From a virus, in the IMG/VR virus record IMGVR_UViG_3300044695_007705, positions 18,311 through 82,310 of that record: a DNA stretch of 64,000 nt. One strand, given 5' to 3'. The first letter of the stretch is position 1; every line of letters starts with the position of its first letter. Both the position numbers and the translations under genes were made by a program. Under the pieces are notes generated by a model that saw nothing but the letters and a program-made list of their open reading frames with translations, searched no databases and was not told the origin of the DNA. Positions 1,095 to 25,270 of the stretch are shown piece after piece.

Positions 1095-1245
1095 CCGTAC
1101 CTCCGCAATCAGGGCATTCTACTGCTTCGGACCTCGGGCATTCTTTACCCGGGTCGTATATTTCAAGTACGTTGAATCCCCGCCCCTGGCAATTTTTACA
1201 CCAAGGGCGTTTGAAGTCGGGTATCAATACTTGCGGATTGCTCAT
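1069..1245 (-). CDS. Small DnaJ-type zinc-finger protein (58 aa)
   Basis: CKNCQGRG and CPDCGGTG motifs; ATG at 1245 overlaps the dut TGA (ATGA), preferred over the longer track start at 1347. Confidence 0.7.
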   Translation of the reverse strand: MSNPQVLIPDFKRPWCKNCQGRGFNVLEIYDPGKECPRSEAVECPDCGGTGDEFKSRD

Positions 1246-1892
1246 ACCCCTGTCGAGCCGAACCCGCCCAATGACCTTTCCGTCTTGGTAAATACGCTTT
1301 TGTCCCTGGTTACGACGGAGTCGGATTGGTCGATGGCAAGTTCGCACACCCCTTGGGCAATTCGTGCGCCATGAGTAAACACATGGTAATTGTCCCCCAA
1401 CGAGCCTTTGCCTATCTCGTTCGTCAAAGATACCTTGACCCAGTCCCTGTATCCCGAGTCGATAACTCCTGGCGAGTTCGTGACAACCACGCCGTGATTA
1501 TGACACAAGCCGCTTCTCCCTACAATTTTATATTGGAGAACGAATTGATTCCAAGGAGGGCCTGGATACACTTTTTGTATCTCTGGCAAGACGATTTTGA
1601 AACCAGAATTCACAAGGACTGTCTCTCCAGGCGGGAGAAAAACCGCCCCCCTTTCGTTCTCGATTTTTTCAAGAAAGAAGGGAAGCAATTCCGATTCAAA
1701 ATGCTCGCCATTGATATACAGCTTATAGCCGTATTTCAAAGCGTCGGACTCGAACTCTCGGAAAAAGCGGATCGCGTCAGCCCGATTAAATCCGCCCTCT
1801 ACGAACGCTTTGATGTCCGCTCCGGCATCACCTGGGTGCGCCACTTGGGGGGCAAAGTTCTCGTCTTCAACGTAAAAAGTAGGCTTGAGCAT
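1242..1892 (-). CDS. dut: Trimeric dUTPase with a ~50-aa insertion after motif I
   Basis: Motifs GDAGAD, GRSG, GVIDSGYR, RIAQ, RSLGGFGSTG. Confidence 0.92.
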   Translation of the reverse strand: MLKPTFYVEDENFAPQVAHPGDAGADIKAFVEGGFNRADAIRFFREFESDALKYGYKLYINGEHFESELLPFFLEKIENERGAVFLPPGETVLVNSGFKIVLPEIQKVYPGPPWNQFVLQYKIVGRSGLCHNHGVVVTNSPGVIDSGYRDWVKVSLTNEIGKGSLGDNYHVFTHGARIAQGVCELAIDQSDSVVTRDKSVFTKTERSLGGFGSTGV

Positions 1893-1930
1893 TTGATTTT
1901 AGATAGCGGTTAAATTTTAACACAGGAGGT

Positions 1931-3871
1931 TCAACCCTGGCAAGCCAGGCATTCCCTGTATTCCGGCTCGGCCTCGGGGGAAAGCATCGCTTCCAAGCCT
2001 TCGTACCCACCTTCGACATGGCTGCCGTTAATCCATATTTGCGGTACGGTTTGATACGGCCAGTCCACGTCGCTGATTTCCGACCTGTCCTTTTCTTGAA
2101 TAACAAATCCGGCCTTGGTAAGGAGTTCTTTGGCTTTTACGCACCACGGACAACCATCTTTCGTCACAATTAAGGCGACGGGCGATGAAACGGTTACTTG
2201 TTTAGCTGCTTTCTTAACTTGTAAAGAAGTTGACTTCAAATAATACAAAGACTTAAGGCCGACTTTCCAAGCCAACAAATGCAGCTTGTACAGGTATTCT
2301 GCCGTTGACTCAGGATCGACAAACAGGTTAAGGGACTGGCCCTGGCACACGTACCTCTGCCGGTCAGAAGCCTGTTTTACCAGCTCAAACTGGTCGATTT
2401 CCCGGGCCGTTTTGAACACGTTTTTTACATTCTCGCTTAAAAAGTCGAGATGCTGTACGCTTCCACGCTCATCAAGAATACTATCCCATACGTCTTGAGT
2501 ATTTTTACCTATTGAGGTGAGGTGTGCTTCGAGGTACGGGTTTCGACGCACAAAGGTTCCCTTGTCATTAGTCGCGACGAACAAGTTCGCGATGATGGGC
2601 TCGATGCCTTCGCTTACTGCACCGCATATGACAGAGTTTGTTTTAGTAGGAGCAATTGCAGTTCGAGTAGCGTGGCGGATTCCATGCCCCTCGCACCATT
2701 CCGGTTCGCCGTACTCCCTCGCCATGTCCTGAGACGCTTTTAGGGTCATTTCGTCTATATATCTGTGGGTTTCAATGTTTAACTCGCGTGCTTTTTGGCT
2801 TGCGAAAGGCAGTCCGCGAGACTGGTAAAGGGCATGCAGACCCATTGTCCCCAGCCCGAGTGAACGGGACTTGGACGTGAATCTTACCGCACGCCCCATG
2901 GACGGGATTCTCTTCGCCTTGTGGATAAATTCTTCGACAATCGCGTCCAGAAAATAGATTCCTAGTTCTGGAACGGTTTTACCGGTGTTTCTCCCCTTCC
3001 AATCTTTCCACTCGTCGAACTTAGCCAGGTTAAGAGATGATAGTACACATGTAAACGAATGATTTTCATCCATAGGCAACATGATCTCTGAACATAAGTT
3101 CGAGGATATAATATTCAAATTGCGTTTCTTGAAGCATTCTGGCGCCTGGTTATTAGCATTGTCTACAAACATTAAGTAAGGCGAGCCGGATACCAAACGA
3201 CTTCTCAACACCTCTCCAAATATTCTCTGCTTGTCTTTATCGCCCTCTAACATCTCCTCAATCCACTTGTTCTTTACAACTACAGCAAGGTTCGAGTCGA
3301 TGAAATTGCGCGGATCGCCCTGGCTATGGTCTTTGCTGCGCAAAGCGTCCATGAGGTCAGGGTGCTCAATAGGGATGTAAAGAGCGAATGAGCCGCGCCT
3401 TGTGTTCCCCTGGCTAACAATGGCTGCAGTACGGTCATAAAGGCGCATCCATTCCACAATCGAGCCGGACTTGCCACCACCGCTGATCGGAGAGCCGCTG
3501 GGGCGAAGTTCACCAAAATAACTCCCCACACCCCCGCCATGCTTACTCAATGCAGCAACTTCTTTCAAATGGCTAAAGATGTTATTTGTATCATCTTTGA
3601 TGGTATGAGAATAGCAGGAAGCCGGAAGTCCTCTATTCGTACCGAAATTACTTAACACAGGAGACGCACCTCCCATGTAACCTTTCCAAAACATCTCCAT
3701 AATATCTTCGCCGATTCCCGGTCTTTTAAGATATTTTTCGGCCGTTAACGAGCACCGCTTCCACATCTCGCGTGGAGTCTCGCCAGGCAATAAATAGCCA
3801 TTCGCAAGTACTTGTTGCGCTTCTTCGTTGAGCCAGTCGGGGTGTGTAGCTAGGGTGTCAATGTCAAACAT
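1931..3871 (-). CDS. nrdA: Class Ia ribonucleotide reductase alpha subunit with an internal C-terminal glutaredoxin domain
   Basis: ASPVLSNFG, SC, SNLCSEI, TAIAPTKTNS, QGQSLN, KSLYY; CPWC...TVPQIWING Grx; terminal CLACQG; no ATP cone. Confidence 0.95.
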   Translation of the reverse strand: MFDIDTLATHPDWLNEEAQQVLANGYLLPGETPREMWKRCSLTAEKYLKRPGIGEDIMEMFWKGYMGGASPVLSNFGTNRGLPASCYSHTIKDDTNNIFSHLKEVAALSKHGGGVGSYFGELRPSGSPISGGGKSGSIVEWMRLYDRTAAIVSQGNTRRGSFALYIPIEHPDLMDALRSKDHSQGDPRNFIDSNLAVVVKNKWIEEMLEGDKDKQRIFGEVLRSRLVSGSPYLMFVDNANNQAPECFKKRNLNIISSNLCSEIMLPMDENHSFTCVLSSLNLAKFDEWKDWKGRNTGKTVPELGIYFLDAIVEEFIHKAKRIPSMGRAVRFTSKSRSLGLGTMGLHALYQSRGLPFASQKARELNIETHRYIDEMTLKASQDMAREYGEPEWCEGHGIRHATRTAIAPTKTNSVICGAVSEGIEPIIANLFVATNDKGTFVRRNPYLEAHLTSIGKNTQDVWDSILDERGSVQHLDFLSENVKNVFKTAREIDQFELVKQASDRQRYVCQGQSLNLFVDPESTAEYLYKLHLLAWKVGLKSLYYLKSTSLQVKKAAKQVTVSSPVALIVTKDGCPWCVKAKELLTKAGFVIQEKDRSEISDVDWPYQTVPQIWINGSHVEGGYEGLEAMLSPEAEPEYRECLACQG

Positions 3872-8705: not shown

Positions 8706-11700
8706 TAATACATTACCATTATATGGACAGTATTTTGGCTTAAGTTAGCCTGTGTTGGGTTTCCGGGGCCACTAGGTAAATACTCCAAGTCTATGCTCTT
8801 TATCTTAATTTGGGTGGTAGTAAGGCTCGAAATGCCGATTAAATGGTCTGCCTCAGTGTCTTGAGCTGAAACATTTACAACCATATTATTTACGTCTACC
8901 CCGATATCCCCACCCGGGATATCTACAGTGTACATTAACCCGTTAATTCCATTGGGTTGAACATTGTCAAACACAGGTGCCGAAGAGGTAGCGTTTGCTA
9001 AAACTCCCCCTCTCGTTAAAACTACACCATTACCAGCGATTTTCATCCACCCCCTGACGGTAAATACGGAGTCTAAGGCGGTCTTAATCGCCTTTTCGGT
9101 CACCAGACTTGAATCGTCGGGAGTACTTCTGATCGCCGTAAGGACTGGCACTTGCTGTACGTCTCCAGCAAGACCCGTACCGGATCTTCCAAGCACTCTA
9201 AAATCGCTGATCTCTTGAATCTTTTTGAGATTGAGAGCATTATCGCTAACTTGATTATTACCAATCCATTGCGAGGTAAAAAGTCCGTCTTCGGTTACAA
9301 GTCTTTGCCGTCTGGTAGCAGAACTGGCCTCTTTATTAATCGAGTTAGTTATGCTAGAGACTTTTTGACCGCTTAAGCTCCCCAACCCTAAGGATGCAAA
9401 AGTAACAGTGTCGTCATTTAAAGGTAAACCGGCACTTACGCTGAACTGGGTAATGTTATCTAATGGGTCGTTGGGGTCACCACCCGGAATTTCCAGAGAA
9501 ACCTCTGTTACCGCAATTCCATTACCGCCATTAACGCTGTTACTAAATCGGACTTCCAGTTCATTAGCCAAGTCAAAAGCTGTGACAGCGACTTTGTCAC
9601 TAATCCCCAAGAACGCAGGGTTCTTCGCCCCTCTAATATCTTCCTTCTTGGCGAGCTGGACGAGACCGGCCCGGTCTCTCGACGCATACACCTGGGGCGG
9701 GTTTGGCGATGCGATGATGTCGCCAGTAGTCAAAGACTTGAACTGAGTATCGTTACTGAAGAATATACTTGTACCCCGGCCCATTATAAGGCTGGAGCCG
9801 TCTTGCATCAGCAACGTACTTCTTATAATTACGTTGTTCAGTACTTGGTTGGTAAGGCCTTCGGCTCCGGACTCAGACGCGTAGGGAATCGAGAACTGTT
9901 CGCCCGATCTAAGGTCAAAGACGGTAGTACCGAGGTAATAATTTCCCTCCTCGTTCATGCCGGTGGCGTATACCCGGCCACCATTCTCTTCGGTAATAAT
10001 CTTACCAAGAATGAACTCTTGCTCTAAAGGTTCGCCTTGGAATGTTGGGAACGAAGTGTCGTAGTTCAGGTAACCGGTCCATTCCCAGGTGTGCCCTGAG
10101 GCGCGGATTACGGACGGACGTCTCAGCCCGATCAGGATGCCGACAGAGGCGGATGCCGAAGTACGGACGGTAATGGGGTCGGTAGACGCCTGTAAAGGTG
10201 CGCTGAAGTTTACAGAAGCCCTTGCTTGCATGAGAGCCAGCGCTTGCTTAGTGGCACTTTCAGTGGGATCTTCCGTAAGCTCGGGATAATCGCTGTCCAG
10301 GGCGGGGTAGAAATCTCCGGTGAATACGTCGCGAGCGCGGGAACCCTGCGTCAAATAGGTTACGTATTTTCCACTGTTTTGGGCACTAGCTCCCGGTGTA
10401 AACACCTCCTCATAAGGGCGCACTTGAGTAATGGTTAACGGGTTATCCTCAAGTTCGGATGAATTATTTAAAGGGAAACCGGCAACACCCGACTGCTTCT
10501 CAAGAACATAATACGGTTGCGGACGTCTCATCCCTCTAAGACGCTCAAATCCTTCGAGTACGACTCGATACACTCGGTCATCCGCTCGCCTCTGGTCAAC
10601 AGCCCGGATGATTTTTATAGCCGAGCGGTTGAACATAAAGTCCAGAGAGGCAAAGACGGCATCTTGCCCGGTCGGATTATCCAGCAGCTTATACCTAAAG
10701 GCGTAGTCAAACCGCTTTGTTAAATATCCGTCAGCGTTTTGATCCGTGGCCTCTTCAGGAATATTTGAAGTTGTTACATCAATATACCAGGCTGGCGAGC
10801 CGGTAACCGTGTTGCCTGTTTCCGGGTCGATATCAGCAGGTGCGCTGTCCCATACAAACACTTTCGAGCTGTCGTCTAGACTGTTAAATCCGGGAGAGTT
10901 TGTAGCCGCTAGTTTAATATCCCCAGTGTATAAAATCGAATTACCTACTTCATCAAACCCATTAATATAGATACGTTTTCTGTTGGGCCTGTTCGGTCCA
11001 CCAGATAACTCCCAAGTGTCCGTACCGATTTTCTTGGTGTAGCTGTACTGTCCGAAAGCGATGTTAGACGCAGAAGGCGGACTCTCCAGGCTAAAAGGAC
11101 TGGCAATGTTCGAGTTTTGAACATAGATTCTGATAGTTTCGGGGGCCTGGTTTTCACCCGTTTTATTAGCCTTTACATAAGCTAAAGTCTTGCTGTAATC
11201 TATTACAAGACTCGTACTCACCTCAATGTCTTCGAGAGTAGGAGGTTTTCCGTTAGCCAATGTAGTGTATTGGAGCGGCAGAGGCGGGATAATTTGTGTT
11301 ATCCTAGTACCGCTATATCCACTTTCCGGCGCCGCTTGATCTTGACTAAAAGACTTCGCCTTGTAGCCAATACCGCGAAGCGAGATATCGCCAAAGTCGG
11401 AACAAGAGTTAGTAATTGATAAGTCGGCTCCAGATTCTGATATGAAATGATCGCTGTTACCTATACAGAATACGGAGACGATTTGGATCGTGGCATCGTT
11501 ACTACCTCTGATACCGAAATGGCGGTACTTGAACTTATCTGCACTGCTGGATTTGTATTTTTTGCCTTCGCTATCCGTCTTGTTAATCGGAGGATCTTGG
11601 AAATACGTATTATCCAAATAACAGGCAGGGTCGGTCTGAAGCGAGACTTGGGTAAAGTTCGCGGTGACCATCGACTTAAAGCCAGACACACGTGAACCGT

Positions 11701-14589: not shown

Positions 14590-14609
14590 GCCTTCAACGA
14601 GTTGAAAGC
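14590..14609. promoter_or_regulatory. Divergent back-to-back box pair (GTTGAAGGC on -, GTTGAAAGC on +)
   Basis: 14590-14598 and 14601-14609; 25 and 20 nt from divergent starts. Confidence 0.8.
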
Positions 14610-22400: not shown

Positions 22401-22600
22401 TGCCCGAAGGGTTTGTTATTCCGGATGGCACCGTATTCCCCGAAGGGTCTTCGCTACCAACAGGTGTAGCGCTACCGTCCGGGACTTTACTACCCGCCGG
22501 TACTGTCTTCCCGGACGGGTTTGTATTCCCCGGGCAAGAACGCACTTCGCTGTACGAAGAGTTGAAAGCGAGGGAGAGCGGAGAAACCGACTGTGAATAA
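19466..22600 (+). CDS. Baseplate spike protein (gp5/gpV OB-fold N-terminus) with long extensions
   Basis: IIDVNDPKRLGRVKV...SKWIPV OB-fold signature; Cys repeats, Gly-rich region, hexapeptide repeats. Confidence 0.7.
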   Translation: MSEFFKHAGVMARAQSRIVETLGVPFADPFNEEAVIIDVNDPKRLGRVKVTTDDGFTSKWIPVSGSSSGTLSSRYIGSNVLVGKTNGRSENMYVIGIVKNDKDVGLNGSPFQLPIIDESMAVWNGSSDPGMTCNRENEGRTYILSNEINQDVVVCLRRSSPQVGNKPAWAWKSLTNGLWVEKGINPGNETTIPIEQAQLRNPGIPECTESLLGEKHDFAEDRGFRTTSMVCRRDENGEFGWIPESAPPVFFRTTLPTCSEKIHGMEAVVDDGNNSEIVKCLRYQGLMRWVKEGKRLPHKFHKKDKPLTKVEFLDGYGPVPALEEGGFDWLKEPEIIETVFDTVISNIPITNTDPALRNALQLAGLLPAQAFNGAQVLSTAAREAMNRRLGVPVDTLTNTLRQELDRDGKLSFETAQLLTGIGDAGRVLTNGVVGGTVDQALVNIGQNALRNSLLSLSPQTASVMTGLMSGGVWGAIDTATILGLSKLPPEVNKYVQPVVGIARNVLAGYPTALGNILNTASGGGLTAAVSGTFNSLLGRNAITPQILSSTASLIGGGALGPMGQMFNQFSNLAGMPMAPGALGSLPFLASTAMGALGIGNAVQSLFGGLGGGIGFNGLAALVGGGFNPISTALFGIGALSSLFGGAGGNCPCDPKCRKVAHGVDTDGQKLLDPCGALTSVNANAYCPTGFCLPNNVGDVAFDLGLTPTLVGKNLIPPNTSDLTQMIYGSQRLVNMAEKFYESRYADEAEKEAEFAYTFENVEKGFKMADNNITRIESVERRLIDSGYNTLQNIFWKPGPETAILEQLIIDVRENSQALQSIYRFVKTLDLVKDGPRIGVNVTPSIGLALANIPGLAGLYEKNKIETTKIMEGGIKPAHLEWETMTPGLDTPVKLGLYNPPLPIVFPNERTLFDEARFLSISLDSKIVDDLQESKPPIDRVLSPNQINTLKNTFIQRAGDASLSSGIITPGGRVTQDLPLPEGFVIPDGTVFPEGSSLPTGVALPSGTLLPAGTVFPDGFVFPGQERTSLYEELKARESGETDCE
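22399..22533 (+). repeat. ~7 tandem hexapeptide repeats [LIF]-P-x-G-x-x in the spike protein
   Basis: LPEGFV IPDGTV FPEGSS LPTGVA LPSGTL LPAGTV FPDGFV FPG. Confidence 0.85.
22561..22569 (+). promoter_or_regulatory. GTTGAAAGC box upstream of terL
   Basis: 23 nt upstream of GTG 22593, embedded in the spike gene 3' end. Confidence 0.7.
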
Positions 22601-24173
22601 GAGCCAATTGGCGAAAGAGAAATCTCTTGTCAAAGAGATGATGCTGAAAGTTGAGAGTTTGAGCCAGGAGGAGAGAAAAGAACTGCTTCGGCTAAAGTGC
22701 CGCACGGAATTTATTACCTACGCCCGAGTTATTACCCGAGAAGCCACAAACAGCGGCGTATTTACTCCGTATAGAGTACACGAGTTAATATGTGACTATG
22801 TTCAGAATATCTGTGACGGGAATCCGGATTATAAAAGAACCTGTATATCCTTGCCGCCTAGGAGCGGCAAAAGCATGCTTATATCTAAATTAATGCCGAG
22901 TTGGCAGCTAGGACGTAGCCCCAGCGCTCAGTTCATCATGGCGTCTTATGGTCTTAAGCTCACGCACGAGAACTCCAGGGCGATATTGAGTTATATTACA
23001 AGCGATACGTTTAAATGGATATTTCCTGAATGCAGTATTAATAAGAAAGACTGTAACCTTAAGACTATGAGAACTGGTCAAGGGGGAATTATAATGTCCG
23101 CTAGTGCAGGGTCCGGTGTTACTGGCTTCGGATTTGGTGTAATTAGCGAAGAAGATTTACCAGGTATCGGCATCTTAGACGATTTACTTGAAGACGGTAA
23201 TTCACTACAAGTACTTGAATCGACTTTTGCCTGGACTGCGACTCAGTTCCTTACTAGAGGTTTACCAAATAACTGTGTTATGTCGATGGGAACTAGATTC
23301 CACGTGGAAGATGTTATCGGCAGATTGCTATCAAGTGACCCGGAAGGTTGGCTAGAGCTAAATGTGCCCGCTTTGTGTCTTGATGAGGAGAACGATCCTA
23401 TAGGTAGAAAGTTAGGTGAATCACATTGGCCGGAATTTTTCCCTGTAGAAGAATTGAAAGTATATGAAAAGCAGGACAAGAATACTTTTGAGACGCTGTA
23501 TCTTGGTAGACCTAAGGGCGCCAGCGGTTCGATTTTTAAACACTCCTGGTTCGAGCAGCATGAGAAAAATCGTCAACAATACGAGTTTGTATTCGCAACT
23601 GCCGATACTGCCCTTAAAGAAAAAGAGATGAACGATTACTCGGTCATGTGCGTGTTTGGGGTTGTTAAAAAGACGAGGAAATTACACCTTATTAGTGTGT
23701 ACAAAGAGCAGATGGAGTTCCCGGACCTGTTAAAGGTGATGCCGCTGTGGTTAAAGACTTGGAAAGTAAGGGCGATTTATATCGAGAGCAGGGCTAGTGG
23801 ACTTCCTTTGATACAAATGCTTCGCAAAGAATTACAGATTCCGGTGAAGGAGGTAATCCCAACCAAAGATAAGATTATGAGGGCGAATGAGGTGGCGCCG
23901 GTAGCGGAAGACGGTCGAGTTTCGATATATTCAGAAATTCCCAAGCTCGGTGAATTAATGTCAGAGCTGTGTGCTTTTCCTTACTCAAAGAATGATGATT
24001 TTGTCGACGCTTTTGTCATGGGTTTAAGAGTGTATAGGGATGAGATTATGGGGGCGGCCAAGGCTGCCCATGGAGGATCTAGAGTTCAACTCCCCCAAAT
24101 CAATCATATTGGGGGTAGTCAAAGAGTTACGGGAAGACTCGGAAGAGGGAGCTTGCCAACTCAGTATTTATAG
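22593..24173 (+). CDS. terL: Terminase large subunit
   Basis: Walker A PPRSGKS, Walker B GILDD, MGTRFH, RNase H-fold ADTA and DDFVDA. Confidence 0.95.
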   Translation: MNKSQLAKEKSLVKEMMLKVESLSQEERKELLRLKCRTEFITYARVITREATNSGVFTPYRVHELICDYVQNICDGNPDYKRTCISLPPRSGKSMLISKLMPSWQLGRSPSAQFIMASYGLKLTHENSRAILSYITSDTFKWIFPECSINKKDCNLKTMRTGQGGIIMSASAGSGVTGFGFGVISEEDLPGIGILDDLLEDGNSLQVLESTFAWTATQFLTRGLPNNCVMSMGTRFHVEDVIGRLLSSDPEGWLELNVPALCLDEENDPIGRKLGESHWPEFFPVEELKVYEKQDKNTFETLYLGRPKGASGSIFKHSWFEQHEKNRQQYEFVFATADTALKEKEMNDYSVMCVFGVVKKTRKLHLISVYKEQMEFPDLLKVMPLWLKTWKVRAIYIESRASGLPLIQMLRKELQIPVKEVIPTKDKIMRANEVAPVAEDGRVSIYSEIPKLGELMSELCAFPYSKNDDFVDAFVMGLRVYRDEIMGAAKAAHGGSRVQLPQINHIGGSQRVTGRLGRGSLPTQYL

Positions 24174-24182
24174 TGCTAAAAT
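24153..24182 (+). promoter_or_regulatory. Host sigma70-type promoter TTGCCA-N18-TAAAAT with TG extension, driving trx-sigma-HNH
   Basis: TTGCCA 24153-24158; TGCTAAAAT 24174-24182; AGGAG RBS before ATG 24213. Confidence 0.65.
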
Positions 24183-24212: not shown

Positions 24213-24545
24213 ATGGAAAAAGAGACCTTTTTAAGAAAAGTCGTACTCTTCGTACAGCCCGGATGCCCCGCTTGCGAAGCTATGAAACCGATTTGGGGAC
24301 AAGTGGCCGGAGAAGTATCTGAAGAATACCCAGAACTGCGTGTGGGCTGGGGAGAATACGACGTCACTGAGGACAACTGGGAATTTCTCGAATCACTTAA
24401 GCCGGGAACCTCCGGGCAAGGAACTCCAGAAATCGCTGTTTTTGACGAAGAATGCGATTTGATCGGGTTTAACGGTGAGGGCATTATGCCCGCTTCGCAA
24501 CTTAAAAGCTTCGTGATCAATTCGATTAAGGGGGGCAGAGCCTGA
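24213..24545 (+). CDS. Thioredoxin-fold protein
   Basis: VVLFVQPGCPACEAMKP active site; GTPEI cis-Pro loop. Confidence 0.85.
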   Translation: MEKETFLRKVVLFVQPGCPACEAMKPIWGQVAGEVSEEYPELRVGWGEYDVTEDNWEFLESLKPGTSGQGTPEIAVFDEECDLIGFNGEGIMPASQLKSFVINSIKGGRA

Positions 24546-25270
24546 TGACCACGCAAGGTATTAATGTCGAGCTGAGAAGGGAGAGGCTTAGGAATAATTA
24601 TAATCGGAGGAAGACGGAGTACGAGCGGACTCGCGATTTTCACATCCGGGAAAATATGTGGAAAGCGAGTTATGCCGCGAGGAAAGTGGCTTCGTTCTCC
24701 GGTGTCCCATTTGATGAGTTGAGGTCTGTAGCCCTTGAAGCAATGGTCAAACTTTATGACAAGTGGGATCCAGAGAAGGCGAATTTTAGTACTTGGCTAA
24801 ATCGTTCGCTAACGTTCCAGCTATTGAATTATTTGCGCGATAACTCGCGAATGATCAAGATACCACGGTCGTATTCAGACGCTTATATGAAGATGAGAAG
24901 GATTGTTGGCAGGAGCCCAGACCTGACCGACGCGCAGATCTCTGAGGCTACTGGACTAACCGAGCAGCTTATAGCCGAGACGCGTGAAGCGTTTCAGATG
25001 ACGTATTTGGAGATTAACGAGGAGACAGAGATGCCAGTTGATGACGGCGGGATTGATGACGATAATCTCGCCTCGATGTTTAGCGATTATGGGGATATTA
25101 TAGGTAGGCTTTCGAAACTTTACCCAGAAGAATACACCTTTCTAATGGATGTTTACATTCACAAAAGAGCTGTGTCAACCATCTATCGTAAGAACCCAGG
25201 TATTAATAGTGCGGAGAAGATTGCAGCGAGGACGGACGAGCTGCTTAGCAAACTTATGAGTGATGGGTAA
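24545..25270 (+). CDS. Phage RNA polymerase sigma factor (group 3, SigF/SigB-like) with degenerate region 4
   Basis: Region 2 FDELRSVALEAMVKLYDKWDPEKANFSTW...LLNYLRDNSRMIKIPRS; region 3 TDAQISEATGLT. Confidence 0.88.
   Translation: MTTQGINVELRRERLRNNYNRRKTEYERTRDFHIRENMWKASYAARKVASFSGVPFDELRSVALEAMVKLYDKWDPEKANFSTWLNRSLTFQLLNYLRDNSRMIKIPRSYSDAYMKMRRIVGRSPDLTDAQISEATGLTEQLIAETREAFQMTYLEINEETEMPVDDGGIDDDNLASMFSDYGDIIGRLSKLYPEEYTFLMDVYIHKRAVSTIYRKNPGINSAEKIAARTDELLSKLMSDG

Follow-up and report, generated by a model that had tools for sequence, protein, structure and literature searches.

The window analysed here, a stretch of 64,000 nucleotides (bases 18311-82310 of the 82,310-bp IMG/VR virus record IMGVR_UViG_3300044695_007705, which is about 51% complete according to CheckV), encodes a sigma-70-family factor and carries a short box, GTTGAAAGC, in front of many of its genes. 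The best phage matches of the sigma open reading frame (ORF) are the “SigF” or “RNA polymerase sigma factor” genes of the cyanophages S-TIM5, S-TIM54, S-TIM61 and S-TIM66 (39% identity over residues 30-238). We consider it moderately probable that the host polymerase makes this phage sigma factor, which then steers the host core RNA polymerase (RNAP) to promoters that consist of the single box. This reading builds on the sigma gene and its domains, on the statistics, geometry and conservation of the motif, and on its association with the sigma clade; from these we infer which polymerase and which sigma factor would read the box, where transcription would start, and when.

A Nine-Base Box Upstream of Most Transcription Units

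The box occurs 16 times in the window, where 0.64 copies are expected, and none of 100 shuffled sequences reached this number. The window's whole record holds 19 copies, and two related records, whose sigma factors are 59% and 62% identical to that of the window, hold 22 and 21. The 62 sites of these three records form the basis of the box statistics given here. A co-oriented ORF of at least 50 amino acids starts within 80 nt of 58 of the 62 boxes, and for 47 of them the ORF start lies 20-45 nt from the box start, compared to 336 of 2000 random positions (17%). The distance between box and start is 27-39 nt, mostly at most 36 nt. By our own reading, the boxes head most transcription units, including those of the terminase, the tail fibre, baseplate genes, and many others, and variants with one mismatch are found before the portal gene and before the second members of divergent gene pairs. 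Between divergent genes, the boxes stand back to back at a distance of 0-8 nt and are the only sequence that these short intergenic regions have in common. Moreover, several boxes directly follow terminator-like structures composed of a GC hairpin and a T-run (own reading of the contexts). The placement of the boxes, the divergent pairs, and the neighbouring terminators fit a promoter and argue against a signal at the RNA level.

Divergent box pairs were seen at 14590/14601, 33058/33072 and 57204/57221 of the window, and at 22812/22813 and 39701/39702 of record G002, where two boxes abut without a gap and form a perfect palindrome, GCTTTCAACGTTGAAAGC. The putative start sites of a divergent pair would be about 28 bp apart, so that the two promoters probably exclude each other.

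The sequence surrounding the box is informative as well. Upstream, no element is conserved: between -55 and -16 relative to the box, the maximum is 0.14 bit, in keeping with the claim of a preliminary description of this DNA that the putative box promoters have no -35-like element. The flanks remain below 0.6 bit, except for position 14, which is a purine at 60 of the 62 sites (A at 47). Downstream, the only other informative positions are 9 (T in 37 cases), 13 (T in 43) and 15 (G in 34), i.e., T-A/G-G is conserved five bases downstream of the box. Position 18, which would be -7 if the TA began a -10 hexamer, is A at 20, C at 8, G at 26, and T at 8 sites. When the purine at position 14 is taken as +1, TGAAAG comes to lie at -12 to -7, GT at -14/-13, C at -6, and G at +2. 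This is the spacing of an extended -10 promoter in the open complex of the sigma-70 family. The predicted leaders would have a length of about 13-22 nt and contain GGAG- or AGGA-like sites (own reading). Over the 62 sites, a single conserved element is seen near -10 but nothing comparable near -35, provided that the boxes are promoters and occupy -14 to -6. The same layout is found at 88 distinct sites of the S-TIM5 type, with a softer TA(R) at positions 13-16.

Two other arrangements were considered and rejected. One was a T7-type promoter for a single-subunit polymerase, with 17 bp that end in TATA-GGG at a few sites; the GGG is not general, and the searches described below revealed no polymerase of this kind. 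The other, a box at -35 of leaderless genes, is at odds with the variable distance between box and start codon, and there is no conservation at the would-be -10.

The Box Variant Follows the Sigma Clade

Viral loci encoding the sigma factor were fetched from IMG/VR by alignment to the sigma family, and the best 80 of 88 were used. In 29 of these loci, the sigma factor is at least 58% identical to that of the window; they contain 119 gene-proximal copies of GTTGAAAG versus 5 of GTTTAAAG, and 25 of them are of the G-type, none of the T-type, and 4 undecided. The 51 loci with a sigma factor of at most 45% identity show the opposite preference, with 83 gene-proximal copies of GTTTAAAG versus 7 of GTTGAAAG, and 24 loci of the T-type and none of the G-type. 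S-TIM5 itself has only 2 exact copies of GTTGAAAGC; its matches to GTT[GT]AAAG are mostly GTTTAAAG, many of which are located 25-35 nt before start codons (own reading). The sigma substitutions that are fixed between the clades include L85V, S88C, T90Q and Q92H in region 2.4 and M103L in region 3.0, whereas FSTW, NR, F91, LNYLRD, SR, PR, Y110, D112 and Y114 are common to both. The expectation that region 2.4 co-varies with the motif is thus borne out to the extent that the box variant follows the sigma clade across the 80 loci; as this amounts to one phylogenetic split, the link between box and sigma factor is an association and not proof. Together with the conservation of regions 2.3-2.4 and 3.0 (see below), the clade association is consistent with regions 2.4 and 3.0 as the readers of the box.

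The complete S-TIM5 genome and four partial records contain one gene with sigma region 2 each. Domains of multisubunit RNAP (PF00623, PF00562) were found in none of these five records, while the controls were positive in 14 of 14 genomes. A T7-like RNAP (PF00940) was not found in the five records, either, but the control for this search was positive in 0 of 14 genomes, which makes it uninformative. Relatives that carry the box without the sigma factor, for example together with an RNAP of their own, were named in the preliminary description as possible counter-evidence; there are none among the records examined.

A further variant, GTTAAAAG, is gene-proximal 19 times in the G-type group (L042-L044 and others with at least 58% sigma identity) versus 4 times in the T-type group; the box may tolerate a third base at its position 4. 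When motifs were counted de novo in loci that are short or lack the box (L035/L079, L036, L037, L081, L086, L091), nothing convincing emerged.

A Sigma Factor With Probable Group 3 Architecture

The translation contains the peptides WDPEKANFSTW, YLRDNSRMIKIPR and VYIHKRAVSTIYRKNPGINSAEKIAARTDELL, which the preliminary description had quoted, and the assignment to the sigma-70 family is corroborated by Pfam Sigma70_r2 (PF04542; 32.5 bits compared to a cut-off of 24, E 7.5e-8, residues 46-102) and by PHROG 351, “RNA polymerase sigma factor” (residues 28-176, E 1.3e-15). The search with the sigma factor returned 63 protein clusters, and a family profile was built from 34 members, of which 34/34 match Sigma70_r2. 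In a Pfam scan of the window's sigma factor at E<=1, only Sigma70_r2 and HTH_24 are listed. Within the protein, conservation is highest in regions 2.3-2.4 (residues 79-101), with 17 of 23 positions invariant among 32 members of the GTTGAAAGC clade; in region 3.0, 7 of 17 positions are invariant in the same set. The alignment to solved SigA chains reaches profile position 132 and covers region 3.0 and the start of region 3.1. HTH_24 is present in 20 of the 34 members and corresponds to residues 123-142 in the window's sigma factor, coordinates that apply to this protein only. Pfam Sigma70_r3 matched a single one of the 34 members, at E 0.078, and the family profile aligns across the Pfam r3 regions of two SigB/F/G-type sigma factors, P0152 and P0212.

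A comparison of the family profile with 1.84 billion representatives yielded 687 proteins at E<=1e-3; ten distant hits were scanned with Pfam, and two of them, P0152 and P0212, were put to NCBIfam. They are of the SigB/F/G type, with 237 and 230 bits on TIGR02980 (cut-off 234.35), and align with the profile from end to end, so that the closest full-length relatives found are, as judged from these alignments, SigB/F/G-type sigma factors. The window's sigma factor itself scores 29.3 bits on the NCBIfam model SigBFG (TIGR02980), far below the same cut-off, and 28.8 bits on cyanobacterial SigF (NF005644/PRK07408; cut-off 261), where the match is confined to residues 24-123. The likeness to group 3 and SigF sigma factors that had been noted earlier therefore holds as a remote kinship but not as membership in these families.

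Eleven proteins of about 480-640 amino acids (P0078, P0091, P0093, P0094, P0101, P0108, P0110, P0114, P0116, P0139, P0145) match the sigma profile only at about positions 100-165, 5-9 times each, and appear to be tandem arrays of a module that resembles sigma region 3.

The C-terminus requires a closer look. Among 25 of the 28 Pfam families found in the 34 members at E<=10, there is no Sigma70_r4 family (r4, r4_2), the other three families having at most one member each, and the canonical motif of region 4.2 is indeed missing, as the preliminary description had stated. A C-terminal profile of 65 positions found no sigma factor among PDB sequences either; the best match (E 0.19, coronavirus nsp3) is at the level of chance. 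However, the C-terminal part of the full-length profile aligns with the Pfam region 4 of P0152, P0212, P0122 and P0096, and a hidden Markov model built from the C-terminus alone hits region 4 of P0122 and P0079. In hhalign, the C-terminal 66 residues match four canonical region 4 segments with a probability of 83% (E 8.7e-6), and a 64-row alignment of canonical region 4, built without rows of the phage family itself, with 96.3% (E 1.7e-9, 56 columns), compared to 0.7% for the reversed query and at most 0.8% for 20 column shuffles. Features of residues 170-241 derived from a language model are nearest to Sigma70_r4 clusters (0.92-0.89), which serves as a lead only. According to the hhalign alignment, the helix of region 4.1 is retained (LxxLPxxEYxFLxDVY), and the turn of the helix-turn-helix (HTH) motif contains an insertion of two residues (RKNPGIN). 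The first HTH helix and the turn form a conserved, basic stretch whose mean net charge is +3.9, compared to +0.8 in canonical sigma factors. In the predicted recognition helix, on the other hand, 0 of 19 positions are invariant among the 32 members of the GTTGAAAGC clade, and E, Q or D occupy positions that are mostly R or K in canonical sigma factors.

The high hhalign probability argues that the C-terminus is a divergent region 4 and not a lost domain, with a recognition helix that has drifted. The earlier term “degenerate region 4” would accordingly apply to the recognition helix, in which basic positions of canonical sigma factors have become acidic or neutral, while the fold appears to be kept. 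The homology of the C-terminal 66 residues to region 4, including the HTH motif, speaks against an absence of region 4 as in T4 gp55, and the HTH motif of region 3 appears to be kept, too. By these comparisons, the architecture is probably that of a full group 3-type sigma factor and not that of a gp55-type minimal sigma factor.

A Probable Host-Type Promoter in Front of the Sigma Operon

The sigma gene follows a thioredoxin-like ORF, whose stop codon overlaps the sigma ATG. This ORF matches Pfam Thioredoxin_2 at E 5.8e-4 with 20.6 bits, below the cut-off of 27, and PHROG 22, “thioredoxin domain”, at E 1.9e-4, and in 77 loci a thioredoxin-like gene is situated directly upstream of the sigma gene. 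The preliminary description had placed a host-type promoter, TTGCCA-N18-TAAAAT, ahead of the sigma gene. The site is located where the terminase gene has its 3' end and precedes the thioredoxin-like ORF by 31 nt, and the window contains 2 matches to TTGCCA-N16-19-TAAAAT, whereas 0.05 are expected. As a consensus scan of 8 kb yields 18 promoter-like sites versus 10.5 in shuffled sequence, the match is weak evidence when taken alone; it is the comparison with related loci that makes it strong. At most 100 nt upstream of the thioredoxin-like gene, TGnTAnnnT is present in 73 of 77 related loci (all those in which a thioredoxin-like gene is preceded by 100 nt of sequence), mostly in the form of TGGTATAAT, TGCTATAAT or TGTTATAAT, compared to 517 of 5000 random windows and 107 of 814 regions upstream of other long ORFs. 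Three of the four misses (L010-L012) are due to the choice of the start codon, TGCTACAAT being present there, and the fourth, L062, which shares its contig with L034, contains TTGACA-N17-TATAAT without a mismatch. The sigma operon of S-TIM5 is preceded by TGGTATAAT, and the extended -10 is also retained in L008 and L010-L012, where a different gene lies upstream (own reading of the sequences). On these comparative grounds, the proposed host-type promoter stands as a conserved extended -10 element that probably serves the sigma operon.

The other match to TTGCCA-N16-19-TAAAAT, at window positions 1914-1943 on the - strand just upstream of the ORF 1242..1892 (-), is a candidate for a second host-type promoter. 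Phages of the S-TIM5 clade have the extended -10 about 78 nt before the thioredoxin-like gene (L002, ~11570-11650; L083-L105); the leader in between is highly conserved, looks self-complementary (…cgtaggtttt…aaaacgacgagcgcacgcg…), and may form a leader RNA structure. No terminator-like site is listed on the + strand between the start of the large terminase gene and the start of the sigma gene, and transcription from the box preceding the terminase may additionally read through into the sigma operon.

The third gene of the putative operon encodes a protein of 238 amino acids that is 45% identical to S-TIM5 gp109 (E 1e-56) and has no match in Pfam, PHROG, NCBIfam or PDB. The same slot after the sigma gene is occupied in L009 and L034. 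By eye, the protein shows a pattern, H-x-D-H...C-x-G-x-x-C...N, that is reminiscent of HNH-type proteins. The window's sigma factor contains no cysteine, and direct redox control of the sigma factor therefore looks unlikely.

Proposed Mechanism and Alternative Explanations

In the proposed mechanism, the host primary-sigma holoenzyme would transcribe the three-gene operon, comprising the thioredoxin-like protein, the sigma factor and the 238-amino acid protein, from the extended -10 promoter. The SigB/F/G-like sigma factor with its group 3 architecture would then replace the host sigma factor on the host core RNAP and direct the polymerase to compact promoters of the form M-GTTGAAAGC-Y-N3-T-A/G-G. 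The nine-base-pair box would serve as an extended -10-like element, spanning about -14 to -6 and recognized by regions 2.4 and 3.0, and the pyrimidine-purine step 5 nt downstream of it would provide -1/+1. No -35 element would be used; the fold of region 4 would presumably be kept for binding to the beta-flap, while its DNA-reading helix would have drifted. Since the box heads most transcription units (terminase, portal, tail fibre, baseplate, and others), the sigma factor would constitute a middle/late switch.

The box could also be read by a different factor, such as an alternative sigma factor of the host, a phage activator acting with the host holoenzyme, or an unrecognized phage polymerase, and the phage sigma factor might mainly reprogram host genes, as cyanophage sigma factors have been discussed as modulators of host metabolism (PMC12284385). 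This explanation profits from the fact that the association of sigma factor and box amounts to one clade split, that many ORFs of the window lack a recognized family, and that the window's record is incomplete. We nevertheless regard it as rather unlikely: each of the five records examined, the complete genome of S-TIM5 among them, yielded a single sigma gene and no RNAP domain, the promoter before the operon is of the early type that a switch should have, and the most conserved part of the sigma factor is the part that melts promoters and reads the -10 element. Furthermore, the geometry of the box fits a -10 element of the sigma-70 family, and the box variant changes together with residues of region 2.4. 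Should the box instead be an RNA-level processing site or a translation signal within long polycistronic transcripts, and no promoter at all, this would account for its fairly fixed distance upstream of start codons and its invariable sense orientation. Boxes on opposite strands, however, abut between divergent genes, where no upstream transcript could supply them, several boxes follow terminator-like hairpins (own reading), and neither a pairing partner nor a structure is conserved around the box, where position 14 alone stands out from the flanks. An RNA-level signal thus appears very improbable.

A third explanation retains the sigma factor as the reader of the box and reverses the roles of its domains: the box would be a -35-like element read by region 4, and the TAG downstream of it would be taken by region 2 for the beginning of a -10 element. 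In favour of this view, a homologue of canonical region 4 appears to be retained, its first HTH helix and turn are conserved and basic, and the S-TIM5-type box starts with GTTTAA, which resembles the -35 element of Bacillus SigB; the closest full-length relatives found are of the SigB/F/G type. The spacing speaks against this view, as sigma-70-family holoenzymes require about 16-18 bp between the -35 and -10 elements, but the first six bases of the box are separated from the TA by only 7 bp. A conserved T is missing at the would-be -7 (8 of 62 sites), the recognition helix has no invariant position although the box is invariant, and a TA at -12/-11 would, by arithmetic, leave leaders of only about 3-12 nt. 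A -35 element is therefore improbable, and we prefer the explanation that regions 2.4 and 3.0 recognize the box.

Several points weigh against this preferred explanation. The start site at the purine of position 14 is inferred from geometry alone. The association with the sigma clade is essentially one phylogenetic split, and any co-inherited factor would give the same pattern; moreover, 4 of the 29 and 27 of the 51 loci are undecided, the 27 being mostly short loci. The locus L037 (10,960 bp, 57% GC), whose sigma factor is 68% identical to that of the window, has neither GTTGAAAG nor GTTTAAAG; either the locus comprises too few promoters to show the box, or a third variant exists. Highly divergent phage RNAPs would escape Pfam models, and the PF00940 search adds no information in this regard. 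The retained region 4 with its conserved basic patch (KRAxSTxxRK) could still bind DNA or a partner. The cyanobacterial host of the preliminary description is an assumption; the photosystem genes psbA/psbD (PF00124) were detected in S-TIM5 only, while the window's record and three relatives, all four of which are incomplete, gave no match. Finally, the motif may already be described in the 2012 S-TIM5 paper or its supplement. No published account of the sigma factor or the motif of TIM5-like phages was found, including by a term search of PMC10087341; the 2012 description of S-TIM5 is outside this search. Among the matches listed for the strings of the box motif, all look primer-like or otherwise unrelated and none concerns a phage, and among those listed for cyanophage sigma factors and late promoters, none concerns TIM5-like phages.

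The Genome and Its Relatives

No near-identical phage record was found, as a megablast search with 20 kb of the window against phage records gave no match. The large ORFs of the window include a Mu-type portal protein, the large terminase, a tail fibre, a baseplate spike-like protein, and virion proteins, while many ORFs have no recognized family. The gene order matches that of S-TIM5 (structural genes, large terminase, small ORF, sigma gene, conserved ORF, convergent ORF, large virion protein), and in combination with the sigma matches, this identifies the window, as far as sequence comparison goes, as the structural half of a myovirus that is a distant relative of cyanophage S-TIM5. For two more distant sigma relatives, P0069 and P0070, the locus search found no locus. 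The coordinates of the features are compiled in Table 1.

Table 1. Features of the window relating to the sigma factor, its operon, and the box; positions refer to the window.
Feature	Position	Strand	Evidence
Sigma-70-family factor, 241 aa, ATG start	24545..25270	+	Pfam, PHROG, NCBIfam, phage matches, family profile
Sigma region 2, residues 46-102	24680..24850	+	Pfam Sigma70_r2
Region 3.0 (RMIKIPRSYSDAY) and region 3 helix-turn-helix, residues 102-150	24848..24994	+	SigA-chain alignment, HTH_24
Divergent sigma region 4 (predicted), residues ~180-238	25082..25258	+	hhalign, language-model features
Putative host-type promoter TTGCCA-N18-TAAAAT with TG extension (TGCTAAAAT)	24153..24182	+	Sequence match, conservation; function inferred
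Thioredoxin-fold ORF, 110 aa, GCPAC motif, first operon gene	24213..24545	+	Pfam, PHROG
Third operon gene, 238 aa, overlaps sigma stop codon	25260..25976	+	S-TIM5 gp109 match
GTTGAAAGC box before the terminase large subunit gene (TerL by Pfam)	22561..22569	+	Exact match
GTTGAAAGC box in divergent pair	14601..14609	+	Variant GTTGAAGGC at 14590-14598 on the - strand
Exact boxes	95, 617, 7314, 14082, 30999, 31351, 41429, 50828, 51729, 53851, 62621	-	
Further exact boxes	33072, 57221, 61054	+	

Comparison With Known Systems and Implications

The T4 sigma factor gp55 directs the host core polymerase to promoters that lack a -35 element and have one short element, TATAAATA, around -10. It is a minimal sigma factor that lacks regions 3 and 4 and requires gp33 as well as the sliding clamp, gp45. 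The likeness to the system described here is limited to the promoter logic, i.e., a phage sigma factor and a single element without -35, whereas the sigma factor of the window appears to keep regions 3 and 4. The “T4 gp55-like solution” of the preliminary description would hold for the promoters but not for the protein; its observations are borne out, and its interpretation is supported in part, the gp55-type architecture being a part that did not stand. With cellular SigB, SigF and SigG (group 3), the phage sigma factor shares the length of about 240 amino acids and probably the architecture of regions 2, 3 and 4, but its TIGR02980 score falls far short of the cut-off and no Pfam region 4 match is listed for it. 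The known promoters of the SigB/SigF/SigG family are bipartite, with -35 and -10 elements, in contrast to the putative phage promoters with their single element.

S-TIM5 gp108 is an orthologue (39% identity over residues 30-238) with the same synteny; its operon likewise follows an extended -10, and a single-box motif precedes many genes of S-TIM5. It differs in having the box GTTTAAAG(W) instead of GTTGAAAGC, in V85, C88, Q90 and H92 of region 2.4 (numbering of the window's protein), and in a C-terminal extension; in addition, psbA/psbD are present in S-TIM5 but did not turn up in the window's incomplete record. In its logic, the proposed system comes closest to phiEco32 gp36 and T4 gp55. In phiEco32, the early genes are read by the holoenzyme with the host primary sigma factor, and gp36, a distant sigma homologue, reads middle and late promoters with a single consensus, AATGTA, centred at -11.5 (PMC12276001). 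What both systems would have in common is the host holoenzyme acting first and a phage sigma factor acting subsequently on single-element promoters near -10. Here, however, the element comprises 9 bp and is invariant, the sigma factor appears to have a group 3 architecture with the HTH motif of region 3 and a homologue of region 4, and no gp79-like partner is known for this system, in which two other proteins would be co-transcribed with the sigma factor.

The principle is not new, as phage sigma factors with promoters lacking a -35 element are already known. TIM5-like phages are a widespread lineage, and if the proposed mechanism is true, they would obtain a testable regulatory map that leads from one host-type promoter to one phage sigma factor and on to a 9-bp box before most genes. 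A second lineage of sigma factors, in this case group 3-like, would then have moved to single-element promoters. It is a tentative and on balance doubtful extension of this mechanism that the whole S-TIM5-like lineage controls its middle/late genes by a -35-blind, SigB/F/G-derived sigma factor reading an invariant and exceptionally long 9-bp element of the extended -10 type with G or T at the position equivalent to the flipped -11 base, that the specificity for GTTGAAAGC or GTTTAAAG is set by residues 85, 88, 90 and 92, which would make the two an orthogonal pair, and that the region 4 patch KRAxSTxxRK and the co-transcribed proteins have new roles in the assembly or activation of the holoenzyme. 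The two box variants with their matched changes in region 2.4 would be a natural experiment on how region 2 sets -10 specificity, and, if the proposed mechanism is true, compact orthogonal pairs of promoters and sigma factors could be supplied by these phages.

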